The notes under the pieces are model-generated. The model did no database searches and had not been told where the DNA came from. It saw nothing but the letters and a program-made list of their open reading frames with translations. This document shows, one piece after another, positions 2,632 to 62,731 of a DNA stretch of 64,000 nucleotides. How positions within the stretch are numbered: position 1 is the first letter of the stretch; each line of letters begins with the position of its first letter. Source of the DNA: Octopus vulgaris (lineage: Eukaryota); contig OX597817.1 in the NCBI GenBank assembly GCA_951406725.2, positions 114,948,001-115,012,000 on the forward strand, written 5' to 3'. Position numbers and translations under genes: made by a program.

Positions 2632-4759
2632 TTCTACATTTTTGGTAACAATAACAACTACGAGTTGTTCAATCTGTCTTCCAGTAATCTGTCACAGTAA
2701 CACTGGTATTTGAATCAAACAGCTGTTAACTTAATCATGTTTCCTTCAACCCAACAATCTGGTTCGTGGTTTTCCGAAGTCCGAAGACCAGCTTTCTGAC
2801 TAGTTATAATGTCCGAAAAGACATTTTCGTCTCGTTCCCAACTTCCTTTATTAGAGCCTGTTGTCTTGAAATAACCACGTCATTTACAATTCACCAGTTA
2901 CCAGTCATTCGGGATAGTGAACACCTTAATATCGATACTGCAGTACCACCTTTTCTTGCACGAGGCAGCCCAAGGACAAAAACAACAAATTTGGCATCAT
3001 CATATTCTCATAGAAAACAAGAAAACACCAAAATCAGAATTAAGCCGTTTCTGTTTTTATTTTTAGTTTTAGTTTTTCAAATGTAATCAATCATTTAAAA
3101 TGTTTAGCAGTTTTAGACCTAATTTTTTTCCTCTACCATCCAAGAAGTATTTCCTTTCTTTCAAGTGAATTATCAGATATTCAAATTTTTTATCTTAACC
3201 CCCACCCTCAATGACATGAATATTAGTATAATACTTATTACTCAATTAATTATTCCGCTAAGTAACAACAGGCTCTTTGCAGCATGCAGGTTTAATCTTT
3301 AAATCATCAATTTAGTATTCATTTCCAAAAATTAATGCCACGAAAGTAAACCATATGTGCAATATATCTATGTTTGCAAAGTTTTAATATCATCGTTAAT
3401 TTCACCTTTTGGCAAACTCATTTGTGTGAACGAACTTTCCATGTTAATTTCCTGCAAACTCACTTTTATGAAAACATGTTTATTGCGGTGATAATGAATA
3501 TATACTTTTATGTATTCACTTGTGCAATATTAATATCCTTTTAATATCTCTTAATCTTCTGCCAGTATCTTGATTATGGTTGCACTGAATTTAACGTTTA
3601 TTATTCTTAAACACACAGGCACAGCTAATCTGAACGATAGACAGAACTATTATCGAGGCAGCAAGCTATAATTGACGGTTTTAATTGTTCTAACAATCAA
3701 CTTATTCTTACTTTATTTGTATTAGTTCTTCCTTTTCCTTCCTTATCTCTGTATTTCTTCTTCATTGTTTTTATTTTTGTCTTTATCGTTTCTTGTTTAT
3801 TCTTTCTATTATTCTATTATTACTTATTTTCCCCTTGATTCTTCAACATATGCAAGATCCGTCTTGAATTTTATAATTCATATTAATTTCCATAATGTGA
3901 TTGTTGACATAATTCTTGCGTATTTTGCGATTACAATTTGTAGTCATAAAATTGTAATTGTTGCGGAAGGATTATTGAAACAGCAGTAGGGGAAATGAAT
4001 ATTTGAAATATCATCGATATTGTTTCCTGATATTGTTTTTACACACACACACACACACACGTACACACACATAATGCATGCCCACCCACCCACCCACATA
4101 TATATGAATGTATGGGCATATATTTTGTTATTGTATATCGGTGAACCTTCATATTTCGAACGAAAGCTCTTCAATTATTTGTTTCGCATTAAGTTCCGGA
4201 CATTGTCTAATCACTCTTGACTTTGCAAATGCAGGGAATCAATGATTGCCAAACGAATGCCACAGTCATTAACCAACATTGATATAAATTTTAAAAAATC
4301 TTGTAGAGAAATATTTCCAGCTAGATCGGTGCGCTATTTCTTGCAGAAGATTGTCTGGCACGAAAACAACTTGAGAAAGTCACCAAGGAAATTGGTACGG
4401 CAGGTAAAAAAAAAAAAAGCTCAAGATGGCTAAAGTTGATAAGAAACCGCAAGTGGAACTCTTCTGCAGGAGAAGACTAATTCAGTCCTCGCTTCCCCAT
4501 TCGAGCGAAACGTACAGGCTAAGGAAGGAAATGCTTGTGACTCCGTGATACTGGCTGACGATACAGAAGGGCTTCCAGCATTGCAATGGATTTAGAAGAG
4601 CTTGTATAATCTCCAAGAAGCCCCTGTAGTTTTTGCTTGAGGCAAAACATCTCCAATGTTTATTTCACCTGAAAGGAACACGATATAAATGAAGAATTAA
4701 TAAAACAGATTTATCCACTCTTTTATTTCAGAATTCGTCCAGTTTCTCCCTTTGTGTGT

Positions 4760-7262: not shown

Positions 7263-7304
<42 letters not shown>

Positions 7305-7325
7305 TAACAAAGTGGTGCAGATATC

Positions 7326-7413
7326 AATCCATTACGGCCGTTTCCAACGTCTCCTTTAATTGACTAATGAGAACATTACATCATTGTAAAGAAACGCTTT
7401 CGTCAGATGAATT
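7326..7413 (-). ncRNA. minimal type I hammerhead ribozyme motif
   Basis: Minus strand: helix I aauucau/auggauu, CUGACGA, long helix II (agcguuucuuu...aaaggagacguu), GAAA, palindromic helix III CGGCCG, GUA cleavage triplet. Confidence 0.85.
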
Positions 7414-7838
7414 CATGATCTTCAAACATAAAGGATAGTTCGACTTATTGAACGTATTTAATAAATTCATGGAGTAAGAATATTAACAGTGATCCTGCTA
7501 CAATTTTGTTGGCAGAATGAACTTATCAGAATAGAATATATTTGGTCAGAACAAAAAAGAATTTAGGGGGTTATTAGAGTTTTTAGTAGGAGGAGGAAAT
7601 AATTGACACAAGTGACCAAGTTATCTGAACTTCCAACAATAGAGGAAGGATCGGCTCCAATCGTCTAGATTTCTAAGGAAGATGCTTATGCCCACTGGTC
7701 AGTGGTGAGAGAAGCAACTAATGTCAGATCAGCCGACTAAGTTATTAAGTGATGGTACTATATGTCGGTTTAATTTTCGCAAATGGGTAAGTAGTAGGGT
7801 AGTAATAAGGGAGTGAGTGATAGGGAGGGAATGAGAAT

Positions 7839-7960
7839 GTTATATCGCAATACTACACAGTGGCTGTGTGAGCTACGAAATCCCCATCGCCACTGTTATA
7901 TCGCAATACTACACAGTGGCTGTGTGTGCATCTCATCCTCGTCGCTACTGTTATATCGCA
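7839..7960. repeat. short tandem duplication (gttatatcgcaatactacacagtggctgtgtg x2 plus partial third)
   Basis: Directly visible, ~56-bp period. Confidence 0.8.
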
Positions 7961-9874
7961 CGTTCGGATGCCTCTACTACTCAACTCAACTCTGCTCTTG
8001 ACGTCTAGGCTTCTCTCTCTATATCTACGTATTGGGCTAGCCTACTTCATTCTCTGGGAGCGTCCATACAACAAAGAAGAAAGAAGCTGAATTTATATTC
8101 ATTACTGTATTAAAGGTTTTGAAAAATAATGGAATAAAATTTCAAAATAAAATAGAAAAAAAGGACTGAGGACTATTGTAATTTAGCATAGTTATAATGT
8201 TATAGCATTAAGATAAATTTAGAAATTAGATATATAGGTTAGAAATAAATTATATTTAGAATTATTAGAAGAAAGCGAAGAAACAAATTATTTAAAAAAA
8301 TATATAAAGAAGAGTATTAGATATAGAAATTTAGAATTTAGGCCCACAAGCTAATAAGGAATATAATGCATTTAAAATATAAGGATATAAAGATAAAATA
8401 TACGATGAAGTATGTAAAATATAAACAGTAAAAAGTATATAGTCTTTAAAGAAATATAAAAAGGATATATAAAAAATATGCAAAAGAATATATAAAAATA
8501 TACAGAAAATAAAATATATAACAATATAAAAAGTATAGAAATAAAATATAAAAGAATGCAAAAATATAAGAAAAATATAGAAAATATTTAAAATTCTAAA
8601 AAATATTAAAAAATATAAAGAAATATATAAAAATTATAATGGTATATATATATAAAGAAAAAGAATTATAACAAATACGTTATTTTAAATAAAGAGATAT
8701 ACCAAAATTTAATACAAATAAATCTAAAAGTGAAAAACGGTTTAACAAATGTTTGTAAGATATATTTTAAAGATGTATAAAGCTAAAATCATAATGGACC
8801 TTAGAGGATATATTTTATACTTAGGGGAAGTGTGAAATCCAAAGAAAAAACCCCTGCGAGTAGTAAAGATAAAAACATATCTTATATCAACCATATATGA
8901 AAGGAGTTGATTTAGGAAATGTCTAGATACATATTGTAATAATAGGGTGTAAATTTTCTGGGTTACATTTTAAATTATAAATAATTATTTCCTAGGAGTA
9001 AAGTTATAGAATAATCATTTCAACCTAAAGGTTATATATGGTCAAATTGCGGGAGAGTGACATAAGTATGATTTACTAAAGGAATACTAAATCTAGTTGG
9101 TTACATAAGTATTATTAATGATAACCAGCAATGTGAATGCGAATATGTTAAAAAGAATATTTTAAAATATGGTATTTAAAGAGTGTCAAAATTTATGATG
9201 GGTTATAATGATAAACTATAAAGGAGAGATAAAATTAGGAAAGAAAACAAAAATCAAATTAAGAATTAATAATAAATTAATGAAGTAGTGCTAATTCTAG
9301 TGGGAGGGAGGTTATATTAATTGCTGTATAGAGTTTCAAGGTTTAATCCATGGAGTTATAAACTCAGTATACTATGTAAAGGTAATATAAAAACTATATG
9401 GGGAATAACTATTAAGACATAGGAGTTATAGTGTGTAAGGTATAAACGAATTGGGTGGAGAACAAGTTATCCAGACATCATGGTTAGTTATATAAAGAAA
9501 GAAGATAGCTATACATAAAGGATCAACGGTGTTAAGGGTCAATAGAACACATTACTAAACAGGTTATAATATTACAGAGAGTAAGCTATGAATGATAGCG
9601 CACGGTGAGTAACTTGGGTCATCAAAGAGACAGTAGGAAGTATTATTATTTACTGCTTCTAAAGTATTTAAAGGTACGGGTAATACAATGAAAACATGAT
9701 ACCCTAAGACCTAATAACCCCTAAATTCTTCTGTGTTCTAACTAAATATACACTATTCTGATAACTTCATTCTGCCAACTGGATCGTAGCAGGGTCAATG
9801 TAAATATCTTTACTCCGTAATTTTTGTTAACTATGTTGAATAAGTCGAACTGTCCTTTATGTTTGAAGATCATG

Positions 9875-9963
9875 AATTCATCTGACGCAAACTGTTTCTT
9901 TACAATGATGTAATGTTCTCATTAATCAATTAAAGGAGTCGTTGGAAACGGCCGTAATGGATT
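9875..9963 (+). ncRNA. hammerhead ribozyme motif, core mutated (CUGACGC)
   Basis: Inverted partner of 7326-7413: aattcat CTGACGC ... GAAA CGGCCG TA atggatt. Confidence 0.7.
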
Positions 9964-10492
9964 GACACCTGCGCCTCATTGTTACTCATATTTTATTCAC
10001 CTATCATCGAATCTACGCTTCATAAATATTATAGATAGTATTTTTGATATAAACTACACATCTGAATAGCTAAGATCAGATTTCTTCGCGTAACTAGGTC
10101 TTATTATCTGCATACACTACAAGAATATCATGTGACCGGCACTTATGCATTAAGTTTGATATCTACTTAATAGTGTTGAGTTTGCGTGATACTCAGGCCT
10201 AACAAGTGCTTCAATTTCAGTACTTAATTCAACTGAATCTTAATGATATATATATATATATATATAATTAATCAATATAGGGTGGCAAAAAAAATTTTGT
10301 AGAATTCTTTTGCCACCAGCGGCCTAGTGGGAAAAAATTAAATAGTCATAAACCATTTTTAAGTTCAACATCACAATCAAGGAACGGCCATAATAGGCCA
10401 TTCACCCACTAGAAATAACAGCCAAAAGCTTTAACCGCAAAATAACGTCAATTCCGTAAACCAGGAGAAAATTAAAAAACATTTACCCTGTA

Positions 10493-10599
10493 ATTTCTTA
10501 GACGATGCACCGTTTCATCTACTGTTTAATGGAAAACTAACCTGATTAAATTAAATCAAGCCAATCTACCATAGGCTCTTAGATTCATCAGTAAGAAAT
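10493..10599 (-). ncRNA. type I hammerhead ribozyme (unit A copy 1)
   Basis: Helix I auuucuua/uaagaaau, CUGAUGA, helix II aucua/uagau with long insert, GAAA, helix III CGGUGCAUCG, GUC. Confidence 0.9.
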
Positions 10600-10982
10600 A
10601 GCCAAGCCGGAACAGATATTTTTCACGAGGCATTCTCGTTGCTACCTCGTCAATATCTGACCTAAAATTTTCAAATCGTCGCACTCGCGCCAAATTTATC
10701 GGCAGCAAATAAATATAAGCCGCCGATTCCATTACGGAATTAACCAGAAAATTCATAATTAATCAATATAGGGTGGCAAAAAAATTTTGTAGAATTCTTT
10801 TGCCACCAGCGGCCTAGTGGGAAAAAATTAAATAGTCATAAACCATTTTTAAGTTCAACATCACAATCAAGGAACGGCCATAATAGGCCATTCACCCACT
10901 AGAAATAACAGCCAAAAGCTTTAACCGCAAAATAACGTCAATTCCGTAAACCAGGAGAAAATTAAAAAACATTTACCCTGTA

Positions 10983-11089
10983 ATTTCTTAGACGATGCAT
11001 CGTTTCATCTACTGTTTAATGGAAAACTAACCTGATTAAATTAAATCAAGCCAATCTACCATAGGCCCTTAGATTCATCAGTAAGAAAT
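10983..11089 (-). ncRNA. type I hammerhead ribozyme (unit A copy 2)
   Basis: As copy 1; helix III is the perfect palindrome CGAUGCAUCG. Confidence 0.9.
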
Positions 11090-11424
11090 AGCCAAGCCGG
11101 AACAGATATTTTTCACGAGGCATTCTCGTTGCTACCTCGTTATGGCCGTTCCTTGATTGTGATGTTGAACTTAAAAATGGTTTATGACTATTTAATTTTT
11201 TCCCACTAGGCCGCTGGTGGCAAAAGAATTCTACAAAATTTTTTTTGCCACCCTATATTGATTAATTATGAATTTTCTGGTTAATTCCGTAATGGAATCG
11301 GCGGCTTATATTTATTTGCTGCCGATAAATTTGGCGCGAGTGCGACGATTTGAAAATTTTAGGTCAGATATTGACGAGGTAGCAACGAGAATGCCTCGTG
11401 AAAAATATCTGTTCCGGCTTGGCT

Positions 11425-11531
11425 ATTTCTTACTGATGAATCTAAGGGCCTATGGTAGATTGGCTTGATTTAATTTAATCAGGTTAGTTTTCCATTAAAC
11501 AGTAGATGAAACGGTGCATCGTCTAAGAAAT
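11425..11531 (+). ncRNA. type I hammerhead ribozyme (unit A inverted copy)
   Basis: atttctta CTGATGA atcta ... tagat GAAA cggtgcatcg TC taagaaat; predicted cleavage after C11523. Confidence 0.9.
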
Positions 11532-11649
11532 TACAGGGTAAATGTTTTTTAATTTTCTCCTGGTTTACGGAATTGACGTTATTTTGCGGTTAAAGCTTTT
11601 GGCTGTTATTTCTAGTGGGTGAATGGCCTATTATGGCCGTTCCTTGATT

Positions 11650-11729
<80 letters not shown>

Positions 11730-11959: not shown

Positions 11960-13770
11960 AAATAATAATATAGTGTCATGCAGACTGAGGGCTAAAATAT
12001 CCGCATTTGCAGTCAATCTATGCAAAGTACAATCAAGAACTGATCCCACCCGGCCAAAAAAGGAAATGTATTGTCTGCCAGCATAAACTGTTGCTGTAGC
12101 ATGTAGTGGAGAGATTTTTAAGCAGTCAGTTATGACATTCAAGAACTGGAGCAGAAATAGAAAAAAACGAAACATATACAAGAATCAAACAGTTGGTGAT
12201 AGCTGACTCAACAAGAATAATTTTTGTTGATGCTTGTAATAGAATAGTGTTGTAAGAAATTAGTAATAACGGTTCATCCCTCCTACGTGACGAGTGGAAT
12301 GTGGAGTCACTATAAACAAGGTGACGTTGGCCGGTATCGAGAGAGTGCGTGTAGATTGTATTGATAGTCATGTCTGTGCTGATATTGTAACTATACTGTG
12401 ATACTAAGCGGACGTTATAACGATCCAACCTTTTGAGGATAATAACACTGTACGACTGGGAGTCGTACAGTGCCAGATAGGAACATTCTATCAACGACTT
12501 CGGAATATAACAATATCTGTCAGAGCGTCAACGGCCGTACAGATACAACAAACAGGCAAAAGACAGATTCAACAAACAGGCAAAAGACAGATTCAACAAA
12601 CAGGCAAAAGACAGATTCAACAAACAGGCAAAATATTTTTGTCTAACTAATTTTGTGCAATTGCAGTGATCTCATCTGAAATTGCTAAGGTTTTTCTCGT
12701 AGGTGGTAGGAGTGTTCACTCTGATGAACTTTGCCTTGCACACAGTCCTTAATGCGACAATGCCACCTTAAGCAATATTGACTAATGATGTGAAAGTATG
12801 AAATGAGCACACAGTACCTCACAGACATGCATTTGAGGCTTTCAATCGTACCTTTCAAGATCTCTGAGGATTTATGAATTTGTCGTCCTGGAGAGTAAAA
12901 ATGACTTTGTACAGGATATTAATGTCATAAACATTCAACAAATACCTAGCTCAGTCCGGATGATACAACTCAATTCACATGGAAGTCGATGTTAACGATG
13001 CTGTTAATCACCCAACAAAGTTCCTTAATTCTCTTCAGTCCACTGCTGTCAGACCTAATCTTCTGCAAGTGAAAGTAGATGCACGCATTGCTATGATATT
13101 TCGATGTCCCAAATCTCTGTAGTGATACAAGATTTTCTATTAAAATCTTTATGTCTCAGGTGATCGAATTTGCTAATATGAATGGTTGCATCAAGGAAGA
13201 TATCCCACGCATTCACATTACCTAATGTGCTATGACATTACAATTCAGGCGCGTTCAGTTTTCATTGATACTGTTTTTTTTTACCTGTTGTTATCAATGT
13301 CTCAAGGACAGCCACTAAAGGTTGTCGGAGTTGGACTCACAACATCATATTTCCTTCTTAATCAGCTCCATGTTGTATGCTCCCGTATTAGGCCAAAGAA
13401 ATATTTTTTCACCACAACACCAAACCGTAAAACGAAATGTTTAGCACAAAAGTTATCGTTCAATGAACCACATTTATATAAGAAGTAAAAATTGCTTCTA
13501 CTTTATGCATTATATATATCAGTTTATAATTGCAAGAAAAATATGAAGTTAGTATTTTCTTAGGCCACAGAATTAAATATCAATAAACACAGTTTCAAAG
13601 ATTTCACAGAAACTTGGCAATATTCAACTGGAGATATGCATCTGCATTACAACAAATGTATAAACAAATATAACTATCAACTAAAGAACTATATAAAACT
13701 TGCTATAAATTATAGTCATTTAATAAACAAATACTTCTTTTTGATATCCGAGCAACGCCGGGGAATTCTG

Positions 13771-17700: not shown

Positions 17701-18028
17701 TACGCCTTGTAACAAATTATTACTGACACAGTTTCATGAAATGAATGTTTGGACGAGAATAACGATATTGTATATTTGTGCATGTAGTTTTTATCTCTTC
17801 CGTTTATACCTAAAACATATCTTGCGCATCCTTTAACAAGCTATCTCATATTCTGGGACTTTACATGGTTCAGTCAGTTCACTTGACCCACTCCGCAATT
17901 TCCTTCTGCACAACAAGGAATTGGACAAGTCAACGTGGGGTTATCTACGAAGTCGTTTAACTGGCAAGAAATTACGGCAAAATTTCTCTGAAAATGCACT
18001 GGACTGTCTTAAAAAAATGAAATGTACA

Positions 18029-18168
18029 GAGTGGCTGTGTGGTAAGTAGCTTGCTTACGAACCACATGGTTCCGGGTTCAGTCCTACTGCGTGGCACCTT
18101 GGGCAGGTCTCTTCTACTATAGTCTCGGGCCGACCAAAGCCTTGTGAGTGGATTTGGTAGACGGAAAC

Positions 18169-18220
<52 letters not shown>

Positions 18221-18448
18221 ATATATATTTGTGTGTCTGTGTTTGTCCCCACACCAACATCGCTTGACAACCGATGCCGGTGTGTTTACGTCTCCGTAAC
18301 TTAGCGTTTCGGCAAGAGAACCGATAGAATAAGTACTAGGCTTACAAAGAATAAGTCCTGGGGTCGATTTGCTCGACTAAAGGCGGTGCTCCAGCATGGC
18401 CGCAGTCAAATGACTGAAACAAGTAAACGAGTAAAAGAGTAAAAGAGT
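18029..18448 (+). mobile_element. SINE family A (tRNA-like head, CORE-like ccttgggcaag segment, internal microsatellite, gtaaaaga tail)
   Basis: gagtggctgtgtggtaag...ggttccgggttcagtcc (A/B-box like)...ggtgctccagcatggccgcagtcaaatgactgaaacaagtaaa; several close copies in the window. Confidence 0.85.
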
Positions 18449-21587: not shown

Positions 21588-21704
21588 AACACAGATGTAG
21601 ATAAACGCAGTTAGTTGAACCACATTAATTAATGGCCTTGTGATATAGAAGAAAATCTAATATCAGTGCTGAATAGGTTATCTTTTAGATAAAATTCGCG
21701 TTAG

Positions 21705-21878
21705 TACATACATACATACATACATACATGATGGCCGTCCACTCGTGACCGAGGAAGACCATTGCCGACCTTCAGGAACATTGTGCGCTCTAGGACTAAC
21801 TTATATTTTGCATTTGCGGCTCCGTTGGTGGCTAATGAGCCCTGTTCTTGACAAGCATACACGACTGCAAACATTGCA
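21705..21878 (-). mobile_element. 5'-truncated RTE/BovB-type LINE 3' end with (TATG)n tail
   Basis: Minus strand 21878-21801 translates CNVCSRVCLSRTGLISHQRSRKCKI*, matching the C-terminal C2H2-like motif (C..C.R...SR.GL.SH.R) of RTE/BovB ORFs; followed by short 3' UTR and TATG repeats. Confidence 0.8.
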
Positions 21879-21922
21879 TACATACATACATATATACATA
21901 CATACATACATACATACATACA

Positions 21923-21958
<36 letters not shown>

Positions 21959-21962
21959 TATA

Positions 21963-22440
21963 TCAAACTAAAGATCAGTGTAAAAGAAAATATACTAAAC
22001 TATTGAGAAATATGCAGTTACTCTACTCAGATTACAAGGTCAGGTTTATACCTTTAATTATTGGGACACTGGGATGTGTAACACAGTGCCTGAGTGCCAA
22101 TCTTGAGAAATTAGGCTTCTCAAAATCAGAAAGGAGAAAGCTGATTCGAAGACTACAGATCCAAGTCATCACTGGCACTGTAAAACATAAAACTTTCTCG
22201 AAGTTTGTCATTTAATATGTATGCGCATGTCTAGACATGCAGCTATATGCATGAGAATGTATACATAAATAAACCATACATATTAGCACATGCACAAACT
22301 CTAAGTACTGCAAATATATACACATGCATGCAAAAATACTCTGCTGATATTGAAATTCCAGTGAAGGAATCTTGAATCTAGATTTGAAACGGACTCTTTC
22401 TCTATTGACAAGAAACTTTGAAATAAACTGAATAATGACA
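21963..22440 (+). mobile_element. 5'-truncated R4/Dong-type (restriction-like endonuclease) non-LTR element 3' end
   Basis: Peptide KRKYTKLLRNMQLLYSDYKVRFIPLIIGTLGCVTQCLSANLEKLG...IRRLQIQVITGT resembles the RLE C-terminal K..KY..L...P.iiG.LG motif; 3' UTR ends aataaactgaataatgaca next to a CATA tract. Confidence 0.75.
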
Positions 22441-25827: not shown

Positions 25828-26529
25828 GCATACATACCTACATACATACACACACACACACACACATACACTCACATCATCCATTCAAGATATAGCGTTT
25901 TAAAACAGAAAAATATCTATAATGAAAATTTATTACATAATGTTCATTTCATGAAATTACTGTACAATGTTAATATTTCATGCGGCATCCCTTAGCTTGG
26001 ATAATTGCTTCAATGCACCTGTGAAGAGATGCGTACAAATCCTTGAACATCTTCACAAATATGAGATGTCATTCTCTGTAGCTGAGATCCCACAACTCTT
26101 CGAGATTCCGTGGAATCTTCTGACGAACTCGTCTCTTTAGTTGTGTCCACATTTGCTCGATGGTATTTAAGCTAGGACTCCGAGCTGGCAATCTTTCAAT
26201 GTGGTAACGTCTTCATCTGTCAGACTCTGTTGTGTTGCATGCGATCTATAGCATGGAACTCCATCATGCTGAAAACTCTCATCTTCATCCAAGTCTGGTA
26301 TGAAATTGTCCTTCAGCAACTGGATGTATTTGGAAATTTTAATCAATTTTCTTGAACCATCACTTTTTATGTATCCCCAAAGCATCAGACTCTTACCCTC
26401 AAATTTCACTGTTTTCGTTGCAATTTCGAAGAGTTGTGGGAGCTCAGCCACAGAAAATGGCATCTCAAACTTGTGAAGATGGTGAAAGATTTGTACGCAT
26501 CTCTTCCCAGGAGCATTGAAGCAATTATC

Positions 26530-27148
26530 GTCGTTCCTAATAAGTGAGAATTTGTCAGTAGGTCTCCTGGAATGCGAAACCACACACATTATACAACGAA
26601 AACAGTGAAGTCTGATGTTTTGGGGATACATAAAAAGTGATGGTTCAAGGAAGTTAATCAAAATTGGATTAAAATTGACTCAACAGTGACAAATACATCC
26701 AGTTACTGAAGGGCAATTTGATACCAGACTTGGATGAAGGTGAGATTTTTTAGCACGACGGAGTTCCATTCCACAGATCGCGTACAATACAACACAGACT
26801 GGCTGATGAAGGTGTTACCGTATTCAAAGATTGACCAGCCCAGAGCTCTGATTTAGATATCATCGAGTAAATGTGCACAGAACTAAAGAGAAGAATTTGT
26901 CAGAAGAATCCACGCAATCTTGAAGAGTTGTGGGAGTTCAGCTACAGGGAATGGCATCTTATACCTGTGAAGTTAGTGAAATATTTGTACGCATCTCTTC
27001 CCAGGCACACTCAAACAATTATTCAAGCTAAGGGAAACTTCTTGAAATGAACATTATGTAATAAATTTGCATTATAGATATTCTCCTGTTTTAAAACACT
27101 GTATCTTGAATGGTTAATGTGAGGTGGCCAAAAACCTTTGCACGGCCA
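26530..27148 (+). pseudogene. Tc1 (DD34E) transposase 3' fragment with TIR
   Basis: F*HDGVPFHRSRT...KD*PAQSSDLDIIE*MCTELKRR...LEELW...EWHLIP...LYASLPR...IIQAKG; TIR-like gtggccaaaaacctttgcacggcca at 27124-27148. Confidence 0.8.
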
Positions 27149-27204: not shown

Positions 27205-28298
27205 TCAGGTCATCCTATAAGTTCTGTCCGATTTTACCATTTTTAAAATTGAATGAAATTTAGTAGTATTTTAGAATGTCTAATGGAATTAAAAATTATT
27301 TTTATGCATTTGTGTACATTTAAACTAATTAAATATTGTTTTACAGAATAACAGTATTAAAACTTCTAACTTGGAACTATCCAAAGAGCATTTAAGGCAC
27401 ATAATGCTTTATGAGTACAAAAAAGCCGAAGCGACTTGAAACACACACTCAGTTTATGGGAAAGAATGCTTGAATGAAAGAACTCGCAGAAGATGGTTTG
27501 CAATATTCAGAAGTGGAGATTTCAGCCTTGAAGATAAAGATAGAACAGGACGTCCAGTTGAGTTTGATGATAAGCTCCTTGAGGCATTACTTGAAGAAAA
27601 TCCTGCGTTATCAGTTGAAGAATTGTCAATAAAGCTTACTTCAAACCATACAACTGTTCATCGTCATCTTCAACAACTTGGAAGATTGGTGCCGCATGAA
27701 TTGTCCGAAAGCAACCGCAAATCCAGAGTTGACATCTGCTCTTCTCTCCATTCTCGTGAACTCATTTCACCCTTTTTGGATAGACTTGTGACTGGTAACG
27801 AAAAAATGGATCTTCTCTCTATCTGGTGGATTGCAAAGGTGTAATTCACCTTGAATTGTTACCAGCTAATGCAACAATCAGTGCTCAAGTCTACAGTCAG
27901 CAATTAGAGCGTTTGAACCAAGCTCTGAAGAAAAAAAATCTACTTTAGTGAATCGAAAACGAGTGATGTTTCATCAGGACAATGCGCGACCCCACACTAC
28001 AAAGATCACATCACTGTAGATCGAAGAGCTTGGTTGGGAAAAAATTCCTCATCCACCTTATTTTCCCGACCTTACTCCTTCAGACCACCATTTGTTTCGT
28101 AGTTTACAGAATAATTTGGGGTACATAACTTTCGCAAGCCAAGTGGAGCCAGAGTTCTTCGCTTGTAAATAGATGGAAGGAAGTCATCGATAATCAGGGA
28201 AAGTATATTGAATTGATGATTAAATTTCAATTAATTTTAACATTTGATCACTTGCTTTCTTTATTCAAAATTCGAACAGAACTTATGGGATGACCTGA
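27205..28298 (+). mobile_element. mariner (DD34D) element, defective, with TIRs and TA TSD
   Basis: TIRs tcaggtcatcctataagttctgt / acagaacttatgggatgacctga flanked by TA; motifs RRWF..FRSGDFSLED..R.GRP, LVPHELS, RLVTGNEK, FHQDNARPH, HPPYFPDLTPSDHHLFRSLQN; frameshifts and deletions present. Confidence 0.92.
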
Positions 28299-29327: not shown

Positions 29328-29491
29328 AGGCGTAAGAGTGGCTGTGTAGTAAGTAGTTTGCTTACCAACCACATGGTTCCGAATTCAGTCCCACTGCGTG
29401 GCACCTTGGGCTAGTGTCTTCTACTATAGCCTCGGGCCGACCAAAGCCTTGTGAGTGGATTTGGTAGACGGAAACTGAAAGAAGCCTGTCG

Positions 29492-29576
<85 letters not shown>

Positions 29577-29784
29577 ATGTGTTTGTGTGTCTGTGTATGT
29601 CCCTCCAACATCGCTTGACAACCGATGCTGGTGTGTTTACGTCCCCGTAACATAGCGGTTCGGCAAAAGGGACCTATAGAATAAGTACTAAGCTTACAAA
29701 GAATAAGTCCTGGGGTCGATTTGTTCGACTAAAGGCGGTGCAGCATGGCCGCAGTCAAATAACTGAAACAAGTAAGAATAAAGA

Positions 29785-35026: not shown

Positions 35027-35440
35027 CGCCGGAGTGGCTGTATGGTAAGTAGCTTGTTTACCAACCACATGGTTCCGGGTTCAGTCCCACTGCATGGCAC
35101 CTTGGGCAAGTGTCTTCTACTATAGCCTCAGGCCGACCAAAGCCTTGTAAGTGGATTTGGTAGACGGAAACTGAAAGAAGCCCGTCCCATATATGTATAT
35201 ATATATGCGTGTGTGTGTTTGTGTGTCTGTGTTTGTCCCCCTAGCATAGCTTGGCAACCGATGCTGGTGTGTTTATGTCACCGTAACTTAGCGGTTCGGC
35301 AAAAGAGACCGATAGAATAAGTACTGGGCTTACAAAAGAATAAGTCCCGGGGTCGACTTGCTCGATTAAAGGTGGTGCTCCAGCATGGCCGCAGTCAAAT
35401 GACTGAAACAAGTAAAAGAGAAAAGAGAAAAGAGAGAGAA
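35027..35440 (+). mobile_element. SINE family A copy
   Basis: Close match to 18029-18448. Confidence 0.88.
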
Positions 35441-37631: not shown

Positions 37632-37917
37632 GGGCCGACCAATGCCTTGTGAGTGGATTTGTCGTATATATGTATATATATGTATATGTATGTATGTGTA
37701 TGTGTTTGTGTGTCTGCGTTTGTCCTCCAAACATCGCTTGACAACCGATGCTGGTGTGTTTACGTCCCCGTAACTTAGAGGTTCGGCAAAAGGTACCGAT
37801 AGAATAAGTACTAGGCTTACAAAGAATAAGTCCTGGGGTCGATTTGCTCGACTAAAGGCGGTGCTCCAGCATGGCGACAGTCACATGACTGAAACAAGTA
37901 AAAAGTAAAAAAAGTAA

Positions 37918-37920
<3 letters not shown>
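37632..37920 (+). mobile_element. SINE family A copy, 5'-truncated
   Basis: gggccgaccaa.gccttgtgagtggattt...tgactgaaacaagtaaa. Confidence 0.85.
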
Positions 37921-37957
<37 letters not shown>

Positions 37958-38137
37958 ATTATGGCTTAGTAAAATAAATTACTTTGCCACATACTGAACT
38001 TAGTAGAAATAGCAGCCAAAAAAATTTTCTTAGCATTTCTACTACTTAAAGAAAATTTCTCTCAGATAATGTTTACTCTAGACAGCTCACGAAGGTTTGG
38101 GGGTAAATACAGAAAAATATCACAAGTACATAGATCG

Positions 38138-38200
38138 TTTGAGTACGTCAACGTTTCAAGATTAGCCAAATAAAATCAGCATTTCTTTCGTCAGCTCAAA
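38138..38200 (-). ncRNA. type I hammerhead ribozyme (unit B copy 1)
   Basis: uuugag CUGACGA aaga...ucuu GAAA CGUUGACG UA cucaaa. Confidence 0.9.
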
Positions 38201-38699
38201 ATTTCTTAATTTGGATTTGGAAACACTAAAAAGAAGGAACTTTACCTATCAGCGACTTGTCGCTTCAGATGAACTACTCCAACTAACAGTGTCAACAAAT
38301 TCAAAATGCGCAGGCGTAAAATTCTGCACTCCCCATTCCACCCACGTGGTCTATCTAGCAAACATTATATTTTAACCGCGAGAACCGAGGCAGTATGACC
38401 GAGAGATATGAATTATAATATCAACAATTGAGGGTAAAATTAATTAATTAATCAATTTCACCAAGTCTTCAGTATGTAAAAGGACCATTTAAGGCGAATT
38501 CAAAATATTACATTATATAATTAGGGCTTAGTAAAATAAATTACTTTGCCACATACTGAACTTAGTAGAAATAGCAGCCAAAAAAATTTTCTTAGCATTT
38601 CTACTACTTAAAGAAAATTTCTCTCAGATAATGTTTACTCTAGACAGCTCACGAAGGTTTGGGGGTAAATACAGAAAAATATCACAAGTACATAGATCG

Positions 38700-38762
38700 T
38701 TTGAGTACGTCAACGTTTCAAGATTAGCCAAATAAAATCAGCATTTCTTTCGTCAGCTCAAA
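38700..38762 (-). ncRNA. type I hammerhead ribozyme (unit B copy 2)
   Basis: Same motif 562 bp downstream. Confidence 0.9.
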
Positions 38763-39153
38763 ATTTCTTAATTTGGATTTGGAAACACTAAAAAGAAGGA
38801 ACTTTACCTATCAGCGACTTGTCGCTTCAGGTGAACCACTCCAACTAACAGTGTCAACAAATTCAAAATGCGCAGGCGTAAAATTCTGCACTCCCCATTC
38901 CACCCACGTGTTAATCTTACCCTCAATTGTTGATATTATAATTCATATCTCTCGGTCATACTGCCTCGGTTCTCGCGGTTAAAATATAATGTTTGCTAGA
39001 TAGACCACGTGGGTGGAATGGGGAATGCAGAATTTTACGCCTGCGCATTTTGAATTTGTTGACACTGTTAGTTGGAGTGGTTCATCTGAAGCGACAAGTC
39101 GCTGATAGGTAAAGTTCCTTCTTTTTAGTGTTTCCAAATCCAAATTAAGAAAT

Positions 39154-39216
39154 TTTGAGCTGACGAAAGAAATGCTGATTTTATTTGGCTAATCTTGAAA
39201 CGTTGACGTACTCAAA
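39154..39216 (+). ncRNA. type I hammerhead ribozyme (unit B inverted copy)
   Basis: tttgag CTGACGA aagaaatgctgattttatttggctaatctt GAAA cgttgacg TA ctcaaa; predicted cleavage after A39210. Confidence 0.9.
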
Positions 39217-39492
39217 CGATCTATGTACTTGTGATATTTTTCTGTATTTACCCCCAAACCTTCGTGAGCTGTCTAGAGTAAACATTATCTGAGAGAAATT
39301 TTCTTTAAGTAGTAGAAATGCTAAGAAAATTTTTTTGGCTGCTATTTCTACTAAGTTCAGTATGTGGCAAAGTAATTTATTTTACTAAGCCCTAATTATA
39401 TAATGTAATATTTTGAATTCGCCTTAAATGGTCCTTTTACATACTGAACACTTGGTGAAATTGATTAATTAATTAATTTTACCCTCAATTGT

Positions 39493-39551
<59 letters not shown>

Positions 39552-41194: not shown

Positions 41195-41519
41195 GTGGAG
41201 GCGCAATGGCCCAGTGGTTAGGGCAGCGGACTCGCGGTCGTAGGATCGTGGTTTCGATTCCCAGACCGGGCGTTGTGAGTGTTTATTGAGCGAAAACAAC
41301 TAAAGCTCCACGAGGCTCTTACTTCCTGTTTCTGTTCTACCTGTATTTCAAAGGGCCGGCCTTGTCACTCTCTGTGTCACGCTGAATATTCCCGAGAACT
41401 ACGTTAAGAGTACACGTGTCTGTGGAGTGCTCAGCCACTTACACGTTAATTTCACGAGCAGGCTGTTCCGTTGATTCGGATCAACCGGAACCCTCGTCGT
41501 CGTAACCGACGGAGTGCTT

Positions 41520-43374: not shown

Positions 43375-43594
43375 ACCGGAGTAAGCACATAATTTTGAAA
43401 CAAGGTAGAAAAAAGAATACTCAAATACCAGAGGTAGAGCAATATGCTTTATTGAAAAGGAGCAGAAATATCACGAAGACTGTTACTCAGAGTTTCACGT
43501 TCCCGTTCGTCTAACAAAACTGTCCGACGTACGGGAACTTGAAACTCTGAGTAACAGTTTTGTGGTATTTCTGGTGCTTTTCAATAAAGTATAT
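43375..43594. mobile_element. PLE pLTR foldback with two degenerate hammerheads
   Basis: Arms ~43442-43513 / 43521-43594; plus motif aaaactgt CCGACGT acgggaactt GAAA ctctgag TA acagtttt. Confidence 0.75.
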
Positions 43595-46411: not shown

Positions 46412-46468
46412 TATACGACATAGAGGAAATGAAAGGATGAACACAGAAATCAATTTATTTATATAATA

Positions 46469-46575
46469 GTCAATTTCATGTTGTCTACGCACGTTTCAAT
46501 TTTTACCGTGAGTCATATTTTACAATTAAAATTGTTGTATGAATTTAGGTGAAAATCTCTTCAGGACAAAATTGA
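46469..46575 (-). ncRNA. type I hammerhead ribozyme motif
   Basis: ucaauuuu-guc CUGAAGA gauuuucacc...aaaaauu GAAA CGUGCG UA gac...gaaauugac. Confidence 0.8.
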
Positions 46576-46660
46576 ATATAGTCATTTACATCCTAATGGA
46601 TGGAGAGTTCATTACAGCCTGAATAGCAGCCTGTGTATGTGTGTATGCGCACGCGCGCGC

Positions 46661-46697
<37 letters not shown>

Positions 46698-47093
46698 CAG
46701 GTGTGCCTTTAGATTCTGTTCTAAAAATAGCTAGAGGTTAAACTTCAACCATGGTGGAATATGGTTAGTTGCAGTTCTGAAGAATTAGGTCATACTCTTA
46801 TTCACGCTTAATGGTATTTAGATCGGTTTTTTAGAGGCCATTCTTCTCTCTATTCACTTCTCAAGAGAATAAAGAATAAGAAATAAACATTTATATACGC
46901 ATAAGTATTCAAATCTATTTACTTATTGCCTATGAATATAAGAAGCTCCCTTTCCCTAATTCATCTGATATAATTGTTAATTCATTTATTTACATATATC
47001 AGCTGATAGTAAAGATTTCAACGTGTATCTTCTCACTATCCTTTAAGTTGGACAGAAGAAACTATCCATCCTTTGCGATGTAAATGAATATAT

Positions 47094-47205
47094 GTCAATT
47101 TTGCCCTGAAGAGATTTTTACCTTTTAAATTCATAATGCAAATTTAATTGTAAAATATGAATGAAGGTGAGAAATTGAAACGAGCGTAGGCTACATGAAA
47201 TTGAC
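47094..47205 (+). ncRNA. type I hammerhead ribozyme motif
   Basis: gtcaatttt-gcc CTGAAGA gatttttacc...ggtgagaaatt GAAA cgagcg TA ggc...gaaattgac. Confidence 0.8.
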
Positions 47206-47475
47206 TATTACATAAATAAATTGATTTTTGTGTTCACCCTCTCCATTTTCTTTATATTATACTATCAAAATTCTGTTCTATATAGGATACATGAAAACAT
47301 CTATAATGACAACTGGAACTTCATATGTGTAAAGCACAGATGTCAAAGAACCATCAATAGGTAGTAATGCTAACCCAAATTAACAAATCCCAGGAAAATT
47401 AATCGATATGGAGCTAAACCGGTGTACGCTTGGATGAAATATATCCCTGAGAAAGAGCAACTTCTTTCTATTCGA

Positions 47476-47515
<40 letters not shown>

Positions 47516-47550
47516 CAAAGTTGAGTTGTGGGGTATAGCACGAGTGGAAT

Positions 47551-47704
47551 TATATACGAAAGAAGGTTTGAAAATGCAATTTAAAAGATGTTTATTTACT
47601 TTACCGGTTTCACTCTTTGGAAAAAGATTCTCAATCTTTTTCCAAAGAGTGAAACCGGTAAAGTAAATAAACATCTTTTAAATTGCATTTTCAAACCTTC
47701 TTTC

Positions 47705-47711
<7 letters not shown>
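47551..47711. repeat. perfect 79-bp-arm palindrome (3-nt loop), pLTR-derived
   Basis: Arms 47551-47629 / 47633-47711; each carries the GAAA-CCGG-UA half hammerhead; flanked by (TA)n. Confidence 0.92.
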
Positions 47712-51763: not shown

Positions 51764-52164
51764 AGTGGTTGTGTGGTAAGAAGTTTGGTTCCGAACCACT
51801 TGGTTCCGGGCTCAGTTCCACTGCGTGCAACCTTGGTTAGTGTCTTCTACTATAACCTCAGGCCGATGTAAAACCGTGTGTGATGGATTTAGTAGACAGA
51901 AACTGAAAGAAGCACGTCGTATCTCTCTCTTTCTCTCTCTCTACGTGTGTATTTGTGTCTTTGTGTCTGTGTTTGTCTCTCAACACCGCTTGACAGTTTG
52001 GGTGTGTTTACGTCCCTGTAAAGCATTCCAACAAAAGACACCGATAGAATAATTATCAGGCTTAAAAAATTAGTACTGGGGCCGATTCGTTTGACTAAAT
52101 TTCTTCAAGGCGGTGCCCCAGCATGACTTCAGTCAAATGACAGAAACCAGTAATAGATAAATGA
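51764..52164 (+). mobile_element. SINE family A copy (older)
   Basis: agtggttgtgtggtaag...ggcggtgccccagcatg..cagtcaaatgac.gaaac. Confidence 0.8.
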
Positions 52165-60397: not shown

Positions 60398-60787
60398 CTT
60401 TTATTCGTGTACTTGGTTCAGTCATATGAATGTGGTCATGATGGAGCACCACAGTAAAGGGTTTTAGCCGAAGAAATCTAACTCAGAGCTTATTCTTTGT
60501 AAGCCTAGTACTTATTCTATCGGTCTCTTTAGCCGGACCACTAGCTTACGGCGACGTAAACACACCAACATCGGTTGTCAAGTGATGGTGGGACGACAAA
60601 CACAAATACAAAGACACACACACATATACATACGACGGGATTCTTTCAGTTTCCGTATACCAAATGCATTCACAAGGCCCTGGTAGGTCCGAGGCCTAGT
60701 AGAAGACACTTGCACAAGGTGCCACGCAATGGGACTGAACCCGGAACCATCTGGTTGGGAAGCAAGTTTATTACCACACAACCACGC

Positions 60788-61119: not shown

Positions 61120-61176
<57 letters not shown>

Positions 61177-61296
61177 CACAATATCTCTGCTCGGTGCGTT
61201 CGGTGAAAACGAAAATACGATGAGCGCGCAATACACGTAGCAGGCGGAATCTGACGAGGCTTACAAAGGCGAAATTTTTGCACGCGTGCAAGAAGG

Positions 61297-61979
61297 AACA
61301 TATAATTGCCAACCACGTGTGGCGTCCTGTACGGGACAGGAAGTCATCTCTTCCAGCTGGCTAACGACACATTCTGTGTCCGATTAGTATTTGCGAGAGG
61401 AGGTCATCGCTCCCATCCCTAGCATTACATGGCACACATGGTCTCCAGTTTCTGGGTGGTTACCCGTCCTCAGCGTGTGTCAATCACCAGCTAGGGATGA
61501 TACCTACTCCACCTGCAAAATACTATATGCTTTTTCCTGCAACAAATCGTCGTTGATCTCGAAAAAGGAGAAATAAACTATATCAAATCTCTGAGCGAGA
61601 TGTAAATAGTACCAACTCAGAATCGTAACATATAATTGCCAGCCAAGTATGGCGTCCTATACGGGACGGTGCTATTTTGCGAGTGGGACGAGTTTTCATC
61701 ACTAGCTGGTGATTAACACACGCTGAGAAGGGGTAACCATCCTGAAACTCGAGTCCGAGTATATCACGTAAGGCTAGGGATGGAAGCGATCACCACCCCT
61801 CGCAAATACTAATCGGGCACAGAATGTGTGTCGTTAGTCAGCTGGAAGAGCTGTCTTCCTGGGGCTATAAATGTCAGTAGCACTGTCCAGTATAGGACGC
61901 CACGCTTGTTTGGTAATTATATGTTATGGCAATTATATGTATTGCTACTGTTTACATCTCGCTCAGAGATTTAATATAG
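61297..61979. mobile_element. older hammerhead-bearing multimer, ~330-bp unit plus partial unit plus inverted unit
   Basis: aacatataattgcc at 61297 and 61627; inversion from ~61673; degenerate hammerheads at 61434-61480 (-) and 61716-61762 (+). Confidence 0.75.
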
Positions 61980-61981
61980 CG

Positions 61982-62231: not shown

Positions 62232-62305
<74 letters not shown>

Positions 62306-62415
62306 CAGCAAAACAATTTAGATTCAAAAGAATATGGTACTTAACTTAGATGCACCAGAATTTTTTTATGGTATTAACCATAAATGATGTGGGGTGATTA
62401 TAACGAAAAAATAAC

Positions 62416-62637
62416 CAACAAGAATGGATCGGTAGTTTAGTACAATTGTTTCTGGTACTCAAATTCTCAACAAGAATAGAAAAAGTAAATATAGAGTTTT
62501 CCCCTAAGGATATCCCCTTACATAGTAAGGATGAATACATCTGGCTACTGATCCATAGAATGCTGTAATATTTGCAGCTTTAATAAAATGTTTATAGTAT
62601 GAAACAATTGTACTAAACTACCGATCCATTCTTGTTG
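62416..62637. repeat. 37-bp perfect inverted repeat carrying a GAAA-CAAUUG-UA half hammerhead
   Basis: 62416-62452 / 62601-62637; region lies between (TA)n tracts. Confidence 0.8.
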
Positions 62638-62649
62638 CTTCTTTTTTGG

Positions 62650-62731
<82 letters not shown>

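Follow-up and report, generated by a model that had tools for sequence, protein, structure and literature searches.

Head-to-head insertions of two non-coding hammerhead-bearing units, each with one arm slightly longer than a single unit: possible products of reverse transcription around a circular RNA

Two insertions, elements A and B, in the 64-kb stretch of DNA analysed here (the window) are best explained as retrozymes mobilized in trans, in which cDNA synthesis was primed at two fixed internal sites and ran around a circular RNA into a second lap. We put the probability of this reading as a whole at about 60%. Each insertion consists of two arms, both made of a tandemly repeated unit and joined head-to-head within an (AT)n tract. 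The first-pass annotation had flagged an inverted segment in each element; these segments are the short arms only, i.e. one half of each insertion, and are the reverse complement of the tandem to their left with 99.5–99.7% identity. No further copy of unit A or unit B was found elsewhere in the 64-kb window, giving one copy per family. Positions within the unit are numbered with +1 as the first base 3′ of the ribozyme cut. The features of element A are as follows.

10246–10263: left (AT)n target flank of A, which doubles as the right boundary of the older element D
10264–11140, minus strand: long arm, 877 nt or 1.79 periods (1.786 laps), outer end +237 (site 2), inner end +342
10264–10317, minus strand: site 2, with a hairpin at +184 to +220, CCT-N2-ATT, the end at +237 and 3 nt of AT microhomology
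10493–10599, minus strand: type I hammerhead motif in the outer lap of the long arm, cut after 10501
10983–11089, minus strand: type I hammerhead motif in the inner lap of the long arm, cut after 10991
11140–11654, plus strand: short (inverted) arm, 515 nt or 1.049 periods, inner end +108, outer end +131 (site 1)
11140–11163, plus strand: putative overshoot copy at the junction of the inversion, of 23 nt and one further shared base, beginning in the loop of hairpin 1
11425–11531, plus strand: type I hammerhead motif of the short arm, cut after 11523
11621–11654, plus strand: site 1, with a hairpin at 11621–11641, CCT-N2-ATT at 11642, the end at 11654 and 2 nt of AT microhomology
11655–11721: right (AT)n flank of A

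Element B has the same overall layout.

37919–37949: left (AT)n flank of B
37950–38910, minus strand: long arm, 961 nt or 1.71 periods, outer end +194 (site 1), inner end +358
After 38706 and after 38144, minus strand: hammerhead cuts of the long arm
38911–39498, plus strand: short arm, 588 nt or 1.046 periods, inner end +263, outer end +288 (site 2)
38911–38936, plus strand: putative overshoot copy, 26 nt with 1 mismatch (38916)
39154–39216, plus strand: type I hammerhead motif of the short arm, cut after 39210
39454–39498, plus strand: site 2, with a hairpin at 39454–39483, CCT-N2-ATT and an end with 4 nt of AT microhomology
39499–39551: right (AT)n flank of B

The terminal redundancy first described for A was reproduced in full: 11141–11163 is identical to 11632–11654 at 23/23 positions with a period of 491 nt, or 24 nt if base 11140, a 1-nt microhomology that both arms can claim, is counted. 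The first-lap copy of this sequence sits in the site 1 region (11621–11654). For B, the period of 562 nt plus 26 nt held, but the repeat is not exact, matching at 25/26 positions with a C/T difference at 38916 and a longest exact match of 20 nt. The repeats of A and B themselves are far beyond chance. A comparison of the 23-nt A pattern with bacterial and archaeal genomes gave 0 matches, as expected. Both inverted segments do read through the tandem junction and then run into (AT)n. The joins to the tract are real, but the junction sequence given for B needed a small correction: the B end reads ...TTGTTGATAT, with 4 nt common to the tract, and the A end has 2 nt in common. The first-pass annotation also described the copying as just over one lap. 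This is accurate for the short arms (1.049 and 1.046) but not for the opposite arms, at 1.79 and 1.71 laps, and these long arms are better evidence for a circular or tandem template than is the 24-nt overlap. The short arm of A falls inside the span of its long arm. The arms of B each reach beyond the other, with an overhang of 94–95 nt either way. Both flanks of A and of B are (AT)n, within which a TSD is indiscernible, and the insertion site of A is the right (AT)n flank of element D. At the B junction (38910/38911) there is a symmetry that A does not have: each arm's inner end is 69–70 nt downstream of the site where the opposite arm started.

Hammerhead motifs were called with a custom type I descriptor in a window-wide scan, which returned seven matches (3 in A, 3 in B and 1 in element E) against two in 10 shuffled windows. 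All three site-spanning laps in A and all three in B carry the motif, with an intact core and stems I, II and III. The cores consist of CUGAUGA or CUGACGA, GAAA, and GUC or GUA; the motif of the A short arm has an 8-bp stem I, CUGAUGA, a 68-nt branched stem II region, GAAA and a palindromic stem III. The self-complementary stem III is predicted to be able to form a dimer and resembles that of dimer-acting PLE ribozymes (PMC4209133; here and below, comparisons with published systems refer to excerpts of the cited papers). All six motifs are on the outward-reading strand, with the RNA 3′ ends facing the microsatellite and the arms head-to-head. A search of the window against Rfam gave no match at the gathering score and no hammerhead family, and E-value scans of A and B gave only hairpin- or miRNA-type noise. 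Each long arm holds two consecutive complete ribozymes, 490 nt (A) or 562 nt (B) apart; judged from their sequence, the two in A would release a 490-nt monomer. The motif need not be active, since in vitro cleavage failed for 8 of 9 Xenopus retrozymes in the excerpted data of 10.64898/2026.07.22.740005.

The units are non-coding. The longest ORF per unit is 66 aa in A and 34 aa in B, GC content is 36.5% and 33.8%, and circular MFE compared with 40 shuffles each gave z-scores of −6.4 and −5.8, respectively. A repeat map of the window revealed no LTR-like layout, and no RT or GIY-YIG Pfam match was obtained for the 18 window ORFs or for six stop-to-X frames inside elements D and E. The RT plus GIY-YIG ORF that marks an autonomous EN+ PLE is absent from A and B. 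The two ribozymes by which 10.64898/2026.07.22.740005 recognizes retrozymes, as excerpted, are present in both. The laps of A show three differences (two substitutions and one homopolymer indel), each private to one copy, and those of B show six substitutions, also private; B position +377 is common to both left laps and is explained by one change in the right arm. Since the laps differ only by such private changes, the insertions are taken to be young and copied from one template sequence. Whole-arm MAFFT alignment of A with B was uninformative. Given a type I hammerhead in every full period, with the RNA sense pointing outwards, A and B are almost certainly non-LTR retrozymes, and we assign them with high confidence to young, non-coding families that are non-autonomous PLE derivatives.

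The outer ends of the arms are far from arbitrary. Each of the four is 13–17 nt 3′ of a hairpin, and the pattern CCT-N1-2-ATT, which was defined after seeing these ends, occurs exactly twice per unit and lies just before the outer end in 4/4 cases. When four ends were drawn at random, they had any such pattern in common 4 times in 20000, or 8 times in 20000 if only AT-ending positions were drawn. With one copy per family, the argument for fixed ends is made across families. In the outermost copy of the B left arm, the motif is altered by one base (37962). Pairwise comparisons of the 65-nt sites were weak (55, 137, 14 and 432 of 500 shuffles reached the score). When 185 nt covering the two sites was compared instead, A and B did align, with a score that 3 of 500 shuffles reached. 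The site regions of A and B have a common fold layout of closing stem, hairpin, site 1, hairpin and site 2. The AT microhomology proposed at the priming ends was confirmed at 2, 3, 2 and 4 nt shared with (AT)n. A match of at least 2 nt is offered by only 90 of 491 positions in A and 106 of 562 in B, so that the joint chance of four such ends is ∼0.001.

It is therefore probable that both broken DNA ends were primed at fixed internal sites; each B arm in particular needed its own priming, as neither falls within the span of the other. The dispersed permutation points envisaged at the outset were not seen, the outer ends of A and B being motif-defined instead. Fixed ends would not refute a circular template, because PLE internal initiation predicts fixed starts on a circle too. 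The outer ends of the two arms are offset by 106 nt in A and 94 nt in B, and we take this offset to be what corresponds to the PLE tail. The link to PLEs in the first-pass annotation is supported, but its likening of the redundancy to a pLTR tail is not: the 24–26-nt redundancy lies at the opposite, inner end, where synthesis stopped. Twin priming of the L1 type, in which arms primed on a single linear RNA abut, was considered and rejected, as the inner ends miss the other start by 69–70 nt in B and, in A, by over 100 nt.

Copying of a circular or tandem RNA by reverse transcription, as originally suggested, agrees with the presence of a hammerhead in each period, with the long arms of 1.79 and 1.71 laps and with the state of the cut sites: all 6 crossings are seamless and none of the 4 arms ends at a cut. 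The seamless passages make a circle or an uncleaved multimer the most likely template, and we lean towards the circle with fair confidence. In the mechanism that we favour, tandem transcripts would self-cleave and then be ligated into circles. A PLE RT/GIY-YIG protein encoded elsewhere and acting in trans would cut both strands of an (AT)n tract, whereupon each free 3′ end would anneal through 2–4 nt of AT microhomology and cDNA would start at one of the two fixed internal sites, 13–17 nt 3′ of a hairpin. Each RT would round the circle and continue into its own hybrid, one halting ∼25 nt into the second lap and the other after 1.7–1.8 laps. The two cDNA ends would then be joined with 0–1 nt of homology, and the redundancy of 23–26 nt would represent second-lap overshoot.

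With uniformly distributed stops, the one-sided probability that both elements have an arm ending at most 26 nt past one lap is 0.009; for a distance of up to 30 nt before or after the one-lap point it is 0.046. The thresholds were chosen post hoc and n=2. The left arm of element C, which ends ∼49 nt past one period with 121 unrelated nt before (AT)n, is a doubtful third case. With element C included, three of five arms lie within 50 nt (p ∼0.01, this threshold also being post hoc). Because the short arm begins at site 1 in A and at site 2 in B, the overshoot goes with the site at which that arm itself started. The point where each short arm stops is in, or next to, the hairpin loop that lies upstream of this start. 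The long arms passed the one-lap point by 0.7–0.8 lap, so there can be no obligatory block at that point. Inner ends at hairpin loops were considered as evidence and dropped: 4/4 inner ends, those of the long arms among them, are near a loop, against prior expectations of 62% (A) and 33% (B) of positions. A stop at one lap plus 25 nt is thus suggestive only, and the chance that stopping at ∼25 nt is mechanistic rather than fortuitous seems to us a little below even. The PLE RT is not known to have RNase H and has to displace its own cDNA. It is conceivable, if doubtful, that there was rolling-circle reverse transcription of a ribozyme circRNA in which a single double-strand cut had its two ends primed at two structure-defined sites and the recurring arrest ∼25 nt into the second lap reflects the RT meeting its own chromosome-tethered hybrid.

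An uncleaved linear multimer could have served as template for the same elements with the same twin fixed-site priming, the overlap then being due to chance 5′ truncation or to a pause at the hairpin of the next unit. The anole PLE protein PAc inserts from unprocessed RNA without ribozyme cleavage (PMC11167929, as excerpted), the seamless cut sites fit a multimer equally well, both short arms halt in or beside a hairpin loop, and the p-value of the overshoot is modest and post hoc. The lap variants cannot tell a circle from a homogeneous multimer, and the coincidence with loops favours neither, such loops being common (62% of positions in A and 33% in B are near one). What a multimer does not explain is the stop at the arm's own start-site hairpin after passing that of the other site, a 1 in 4 outcome if the hairpins are equal; that the laps differ by private changes only also counts against it. 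We consider this account unlikely, though a serious one. Alternatively, tandems might come about when the RT, on reaching the 5′ end of a linear monomer released by the ribozyme, jumps to a 3′ end, either of that molecule or of a second one. Template jumps have been invoked for Penelope (PMC3846280), programmed jumping is reported to yield tandem cDNA in DRT2 (PMC12039810), and the small elements G and H have both arms ending near one inner point, like an RNA 5′ end. In A and B, however, none of the 6 crossings has gained or lost a base and none of the 4 arms ends at the cut, which leaves jumping a slim prospect.

Priming might also have occurred only once, the second arm arising by fold-back or self-priming on the antisense strand and its outer end being set by endonuclease resolution. 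In the excerpted sources, fold-back has been proposed for head-to-head Penelope inversions with junction palindromes (PMC3846280), and EN-mediated resolution has been named as the origin of the tail (PMC8557442); in A the long arm does span the short one, and the junctions of G and H are near-palindromic. Those of A and B are not palindromic, however, neither B arm is contained in the other (the 94–95-nt overhang), which excludes simple fold-back copying for B, and PAc extends both cut strands on sense RNA (PMC11167929, as excerpted). Antisense self-priming is a better match for G and H, with their palindromic junctions, than for A or B, where we think it improbable. Finally, arms that are >99% identical and lie in microsatellites might result from an assembly fold-back artefact or from a later DNA-level inversion inside a direct tandem array, and such structures do trouble assemblies (PMC8557442, as excerpted). 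Yet both flanks join (AT)n at motif-marked 3′ sites, the laps contain private substitutions, and five older elements of the same layout (C, D, E, F and H) have arms that are only ∼83–94% identical, making this explanation very improbable indeed.

Animal retrozymes are described as forming circRNAs, with tandem cDNA proposed to arise from primed circRNA via a PLE RT (PMC7229834), and as derived from pLTRs (10.64898/2026.07.22.740005). Like the metazoan non-LTR retrozymes of these two papers, A and B comprise non-coding, AT-rich, self-paired tandem units with one type I hammerhead each, and for those elements too a circRNA template and PLE mobilization have been proposed. The units of 491 and 562 nt are longer than the 150–450 bp of PMC7229834 and within the 51–972 bp of 10.64898/2026.07.22.740005. 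Unlike retrozymes as described there, A and B each combine partial tandems in head-to-head orientation and have two defined priming sites. The word ‘inverted’ turns up 0 times in the main text of PMC7229834; in the main text of 10.64898/2026.07.22.740005 it occurs only in a reference, and ‘tail’ never. The excerpted text of PMC7761336 discusses neither inverted arms nor tails. No description of lap-plus-overshoot arms was found in the literature searched; the supplements of PMC7229834 (model figure S9) and 10.64898/2026.07.22.740005 may show such insertions.

EN+ PLEs, in turn, are reported to show partial tandems, an adjacent inverted copy, a one-sided tail of 30–40 bp and a bias for (TA)n (PMC8557442). 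A and B resemble EN+ PLEs (Penelope/Poseidon, Neptune and Naiad) in having a partial tandem with an adjacent inverted 5′-truncated copy, a tail-like extension at one end only and (TA)n targets, and resemble the canonical PLE clades in the hammerhead upstream of the 3′ end; they differ from EN+ PLEs in having no RT/EN ORF and in that both arms exceed one unit (PMC8557442, PMC3846280). The tail counterpart is 94–106 nt in A and B, compared with 30–40 in PLEs (PMC8557442) and 42 nt in the neighbouring element G. As Naiads are without canonical hammerheads in the account of PMC8557442, the partner is more likely to belong to a canonical clade such as Neptune. The protein PAc cuts and extends both DNA strands in vitro, starts at two adjacent internal sites, the sequence between which forms the tail, and has unprocessed linear RNA as its main substrate (PMC11167929). 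A and B are similar to this Poseidon in that both strands appear to have been cut and extended and in the two internal starts downstream of a hammerhead and beside a stem-loop. In contrast, the PAc start is AC-rich and not homologous to the target, whereas 4/4 ends in A and B share 2–4 nt with (AT)n; the word ‘circular’ gave 0 matches in PMC11167929. Chlamys MRC1 (PMC8557442) is comparable as regards non-autonomous PLE derivatives with pLTRs, head-to-tail insertions with multiple copies, as well as microsatellite targets, but those elements are green-algal, use (CA)n or (C)n targets and are mostly without hammerheads.

The retrozyme units, the PLE insertion footprint and the element class are thus already known. 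What is new are the two motif-marked start sites ∼100 nt apart, the multi-lap cDNA in both arms and the possible one-lap arrest. PLE-driven retrozyme mobilization via circRNA is a proposal based on shared ribozymes, co-occurrence and pLTR homology (PMC7229834; 10.64898/2026.07.22.740005), and how the tandem and inverted structures of PLEs form is an open task according to PMC8557442, as excerpted. In A and B the insertion footprint of PLEs is seen on units that are purely retrozyme, in arms of more than one unit; the two elements supply short candidate templates and candidate start signals (hairpin plus CCT-N1-2-ATT). Were the rolling-circle reading with its recurring arrest true, partial tandems, inverted copies and tails would be explained by one process, and arm length modulo unit length would allow circular and linear templates of retrozymes, and perhaps of PLEs, to be told apart from sequence alone. 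A and B also yield the numerical prediction of an arm-length peak at one lap plus ∼25 nt. If this peak is absent, they are just two ordinary retrozyme copies whose PLE features are already known.

The window also contains six other inverted elements with (AT)n flanks (C–H), each with one arm that extends further outwards than its partner.

61176–61981: element C, older and two-armed, arms ∼81–83% identical, period ∼330–354, a decayed hammerhead in both arms
7302–10245: element D, inverted 280-nt arms (87%), a hammerhead motif and a 2.1-kb A-rich interior
46416–47478: element E, with a type I hammerhead and 190-nt arms in inverted orientation (85%), its ends being +70 and +290 from the cut
47515–47705, 43376–43589 and 62302–62650: elements G, H and F, respectively, short, (AT)n-flanked and inverted, with one-sided tails

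Beyond the aligned part, G extends by ∼42 nt, H by 74, F by 97, E by 194 and D by 249, and the offset in C is smaller. The hammerhead motifs of C, D and E are partly decayed. The distal end lies at +237 from the cut in A, +288 in B, +226 in C, +289 in D and +290 in E, and this range of +226 to +290 hints at a shared ruler. The interior of D, which gave no Pfam match, may be a decayed PLE body. In element C, the 121 unrelated nt hold a hammerhead-like CUGACGA..GAAA on the opposite strand (61251). The near-palindromic junctions of G and H look as if both cDNAs had stopped at one RNA 5′ end or folded back, and in G, H and F the shorter arm ends where the longer goes on with ATAT/TATA. Repeat regions I–N, 6 of the 12 further regions checked, were set aside, lacking (AT)n on one or both sides or being Tc1-like.

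Other repeats were also noted in the window, which looks like part of an animal genome rich in microsatellites, of a cephalopod-like kind. A mariner (Mos1-type HTH) transposase fragment at 27440–27844 (Pfam PF17906, E 2.9e-05) was the sole match to pass the Pfam cut-off among the 18 ORFs. A frame that resembles a Tc1 DDE fragment and gave no Pfam match lies within a long inverted repeat (77%) at 25871–27123, inside which there is also a direct repeat of 109 nt. The end of a frame at 21673–22215, also with no Pfam match, resembles the C-terminal REL endonuclease of a non-LTR element. Dispersed SINE-like families occupy 18028–18421, 29335–29770, 35032–35413, 37724–37895, 51764–52161, 60400–60785 and 41198–41511; the family at 41198 has a tRNA-like head, and ARAGORN found no tRNA gene. 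An exact 54-nt inverted pair, 1.5 kb apart and without (AT)n flanks, is located at 1919–1972 and 3419–3472, and a tandem repeat of 24 nt at 12539–12633 has 4 copies with 98% matches.
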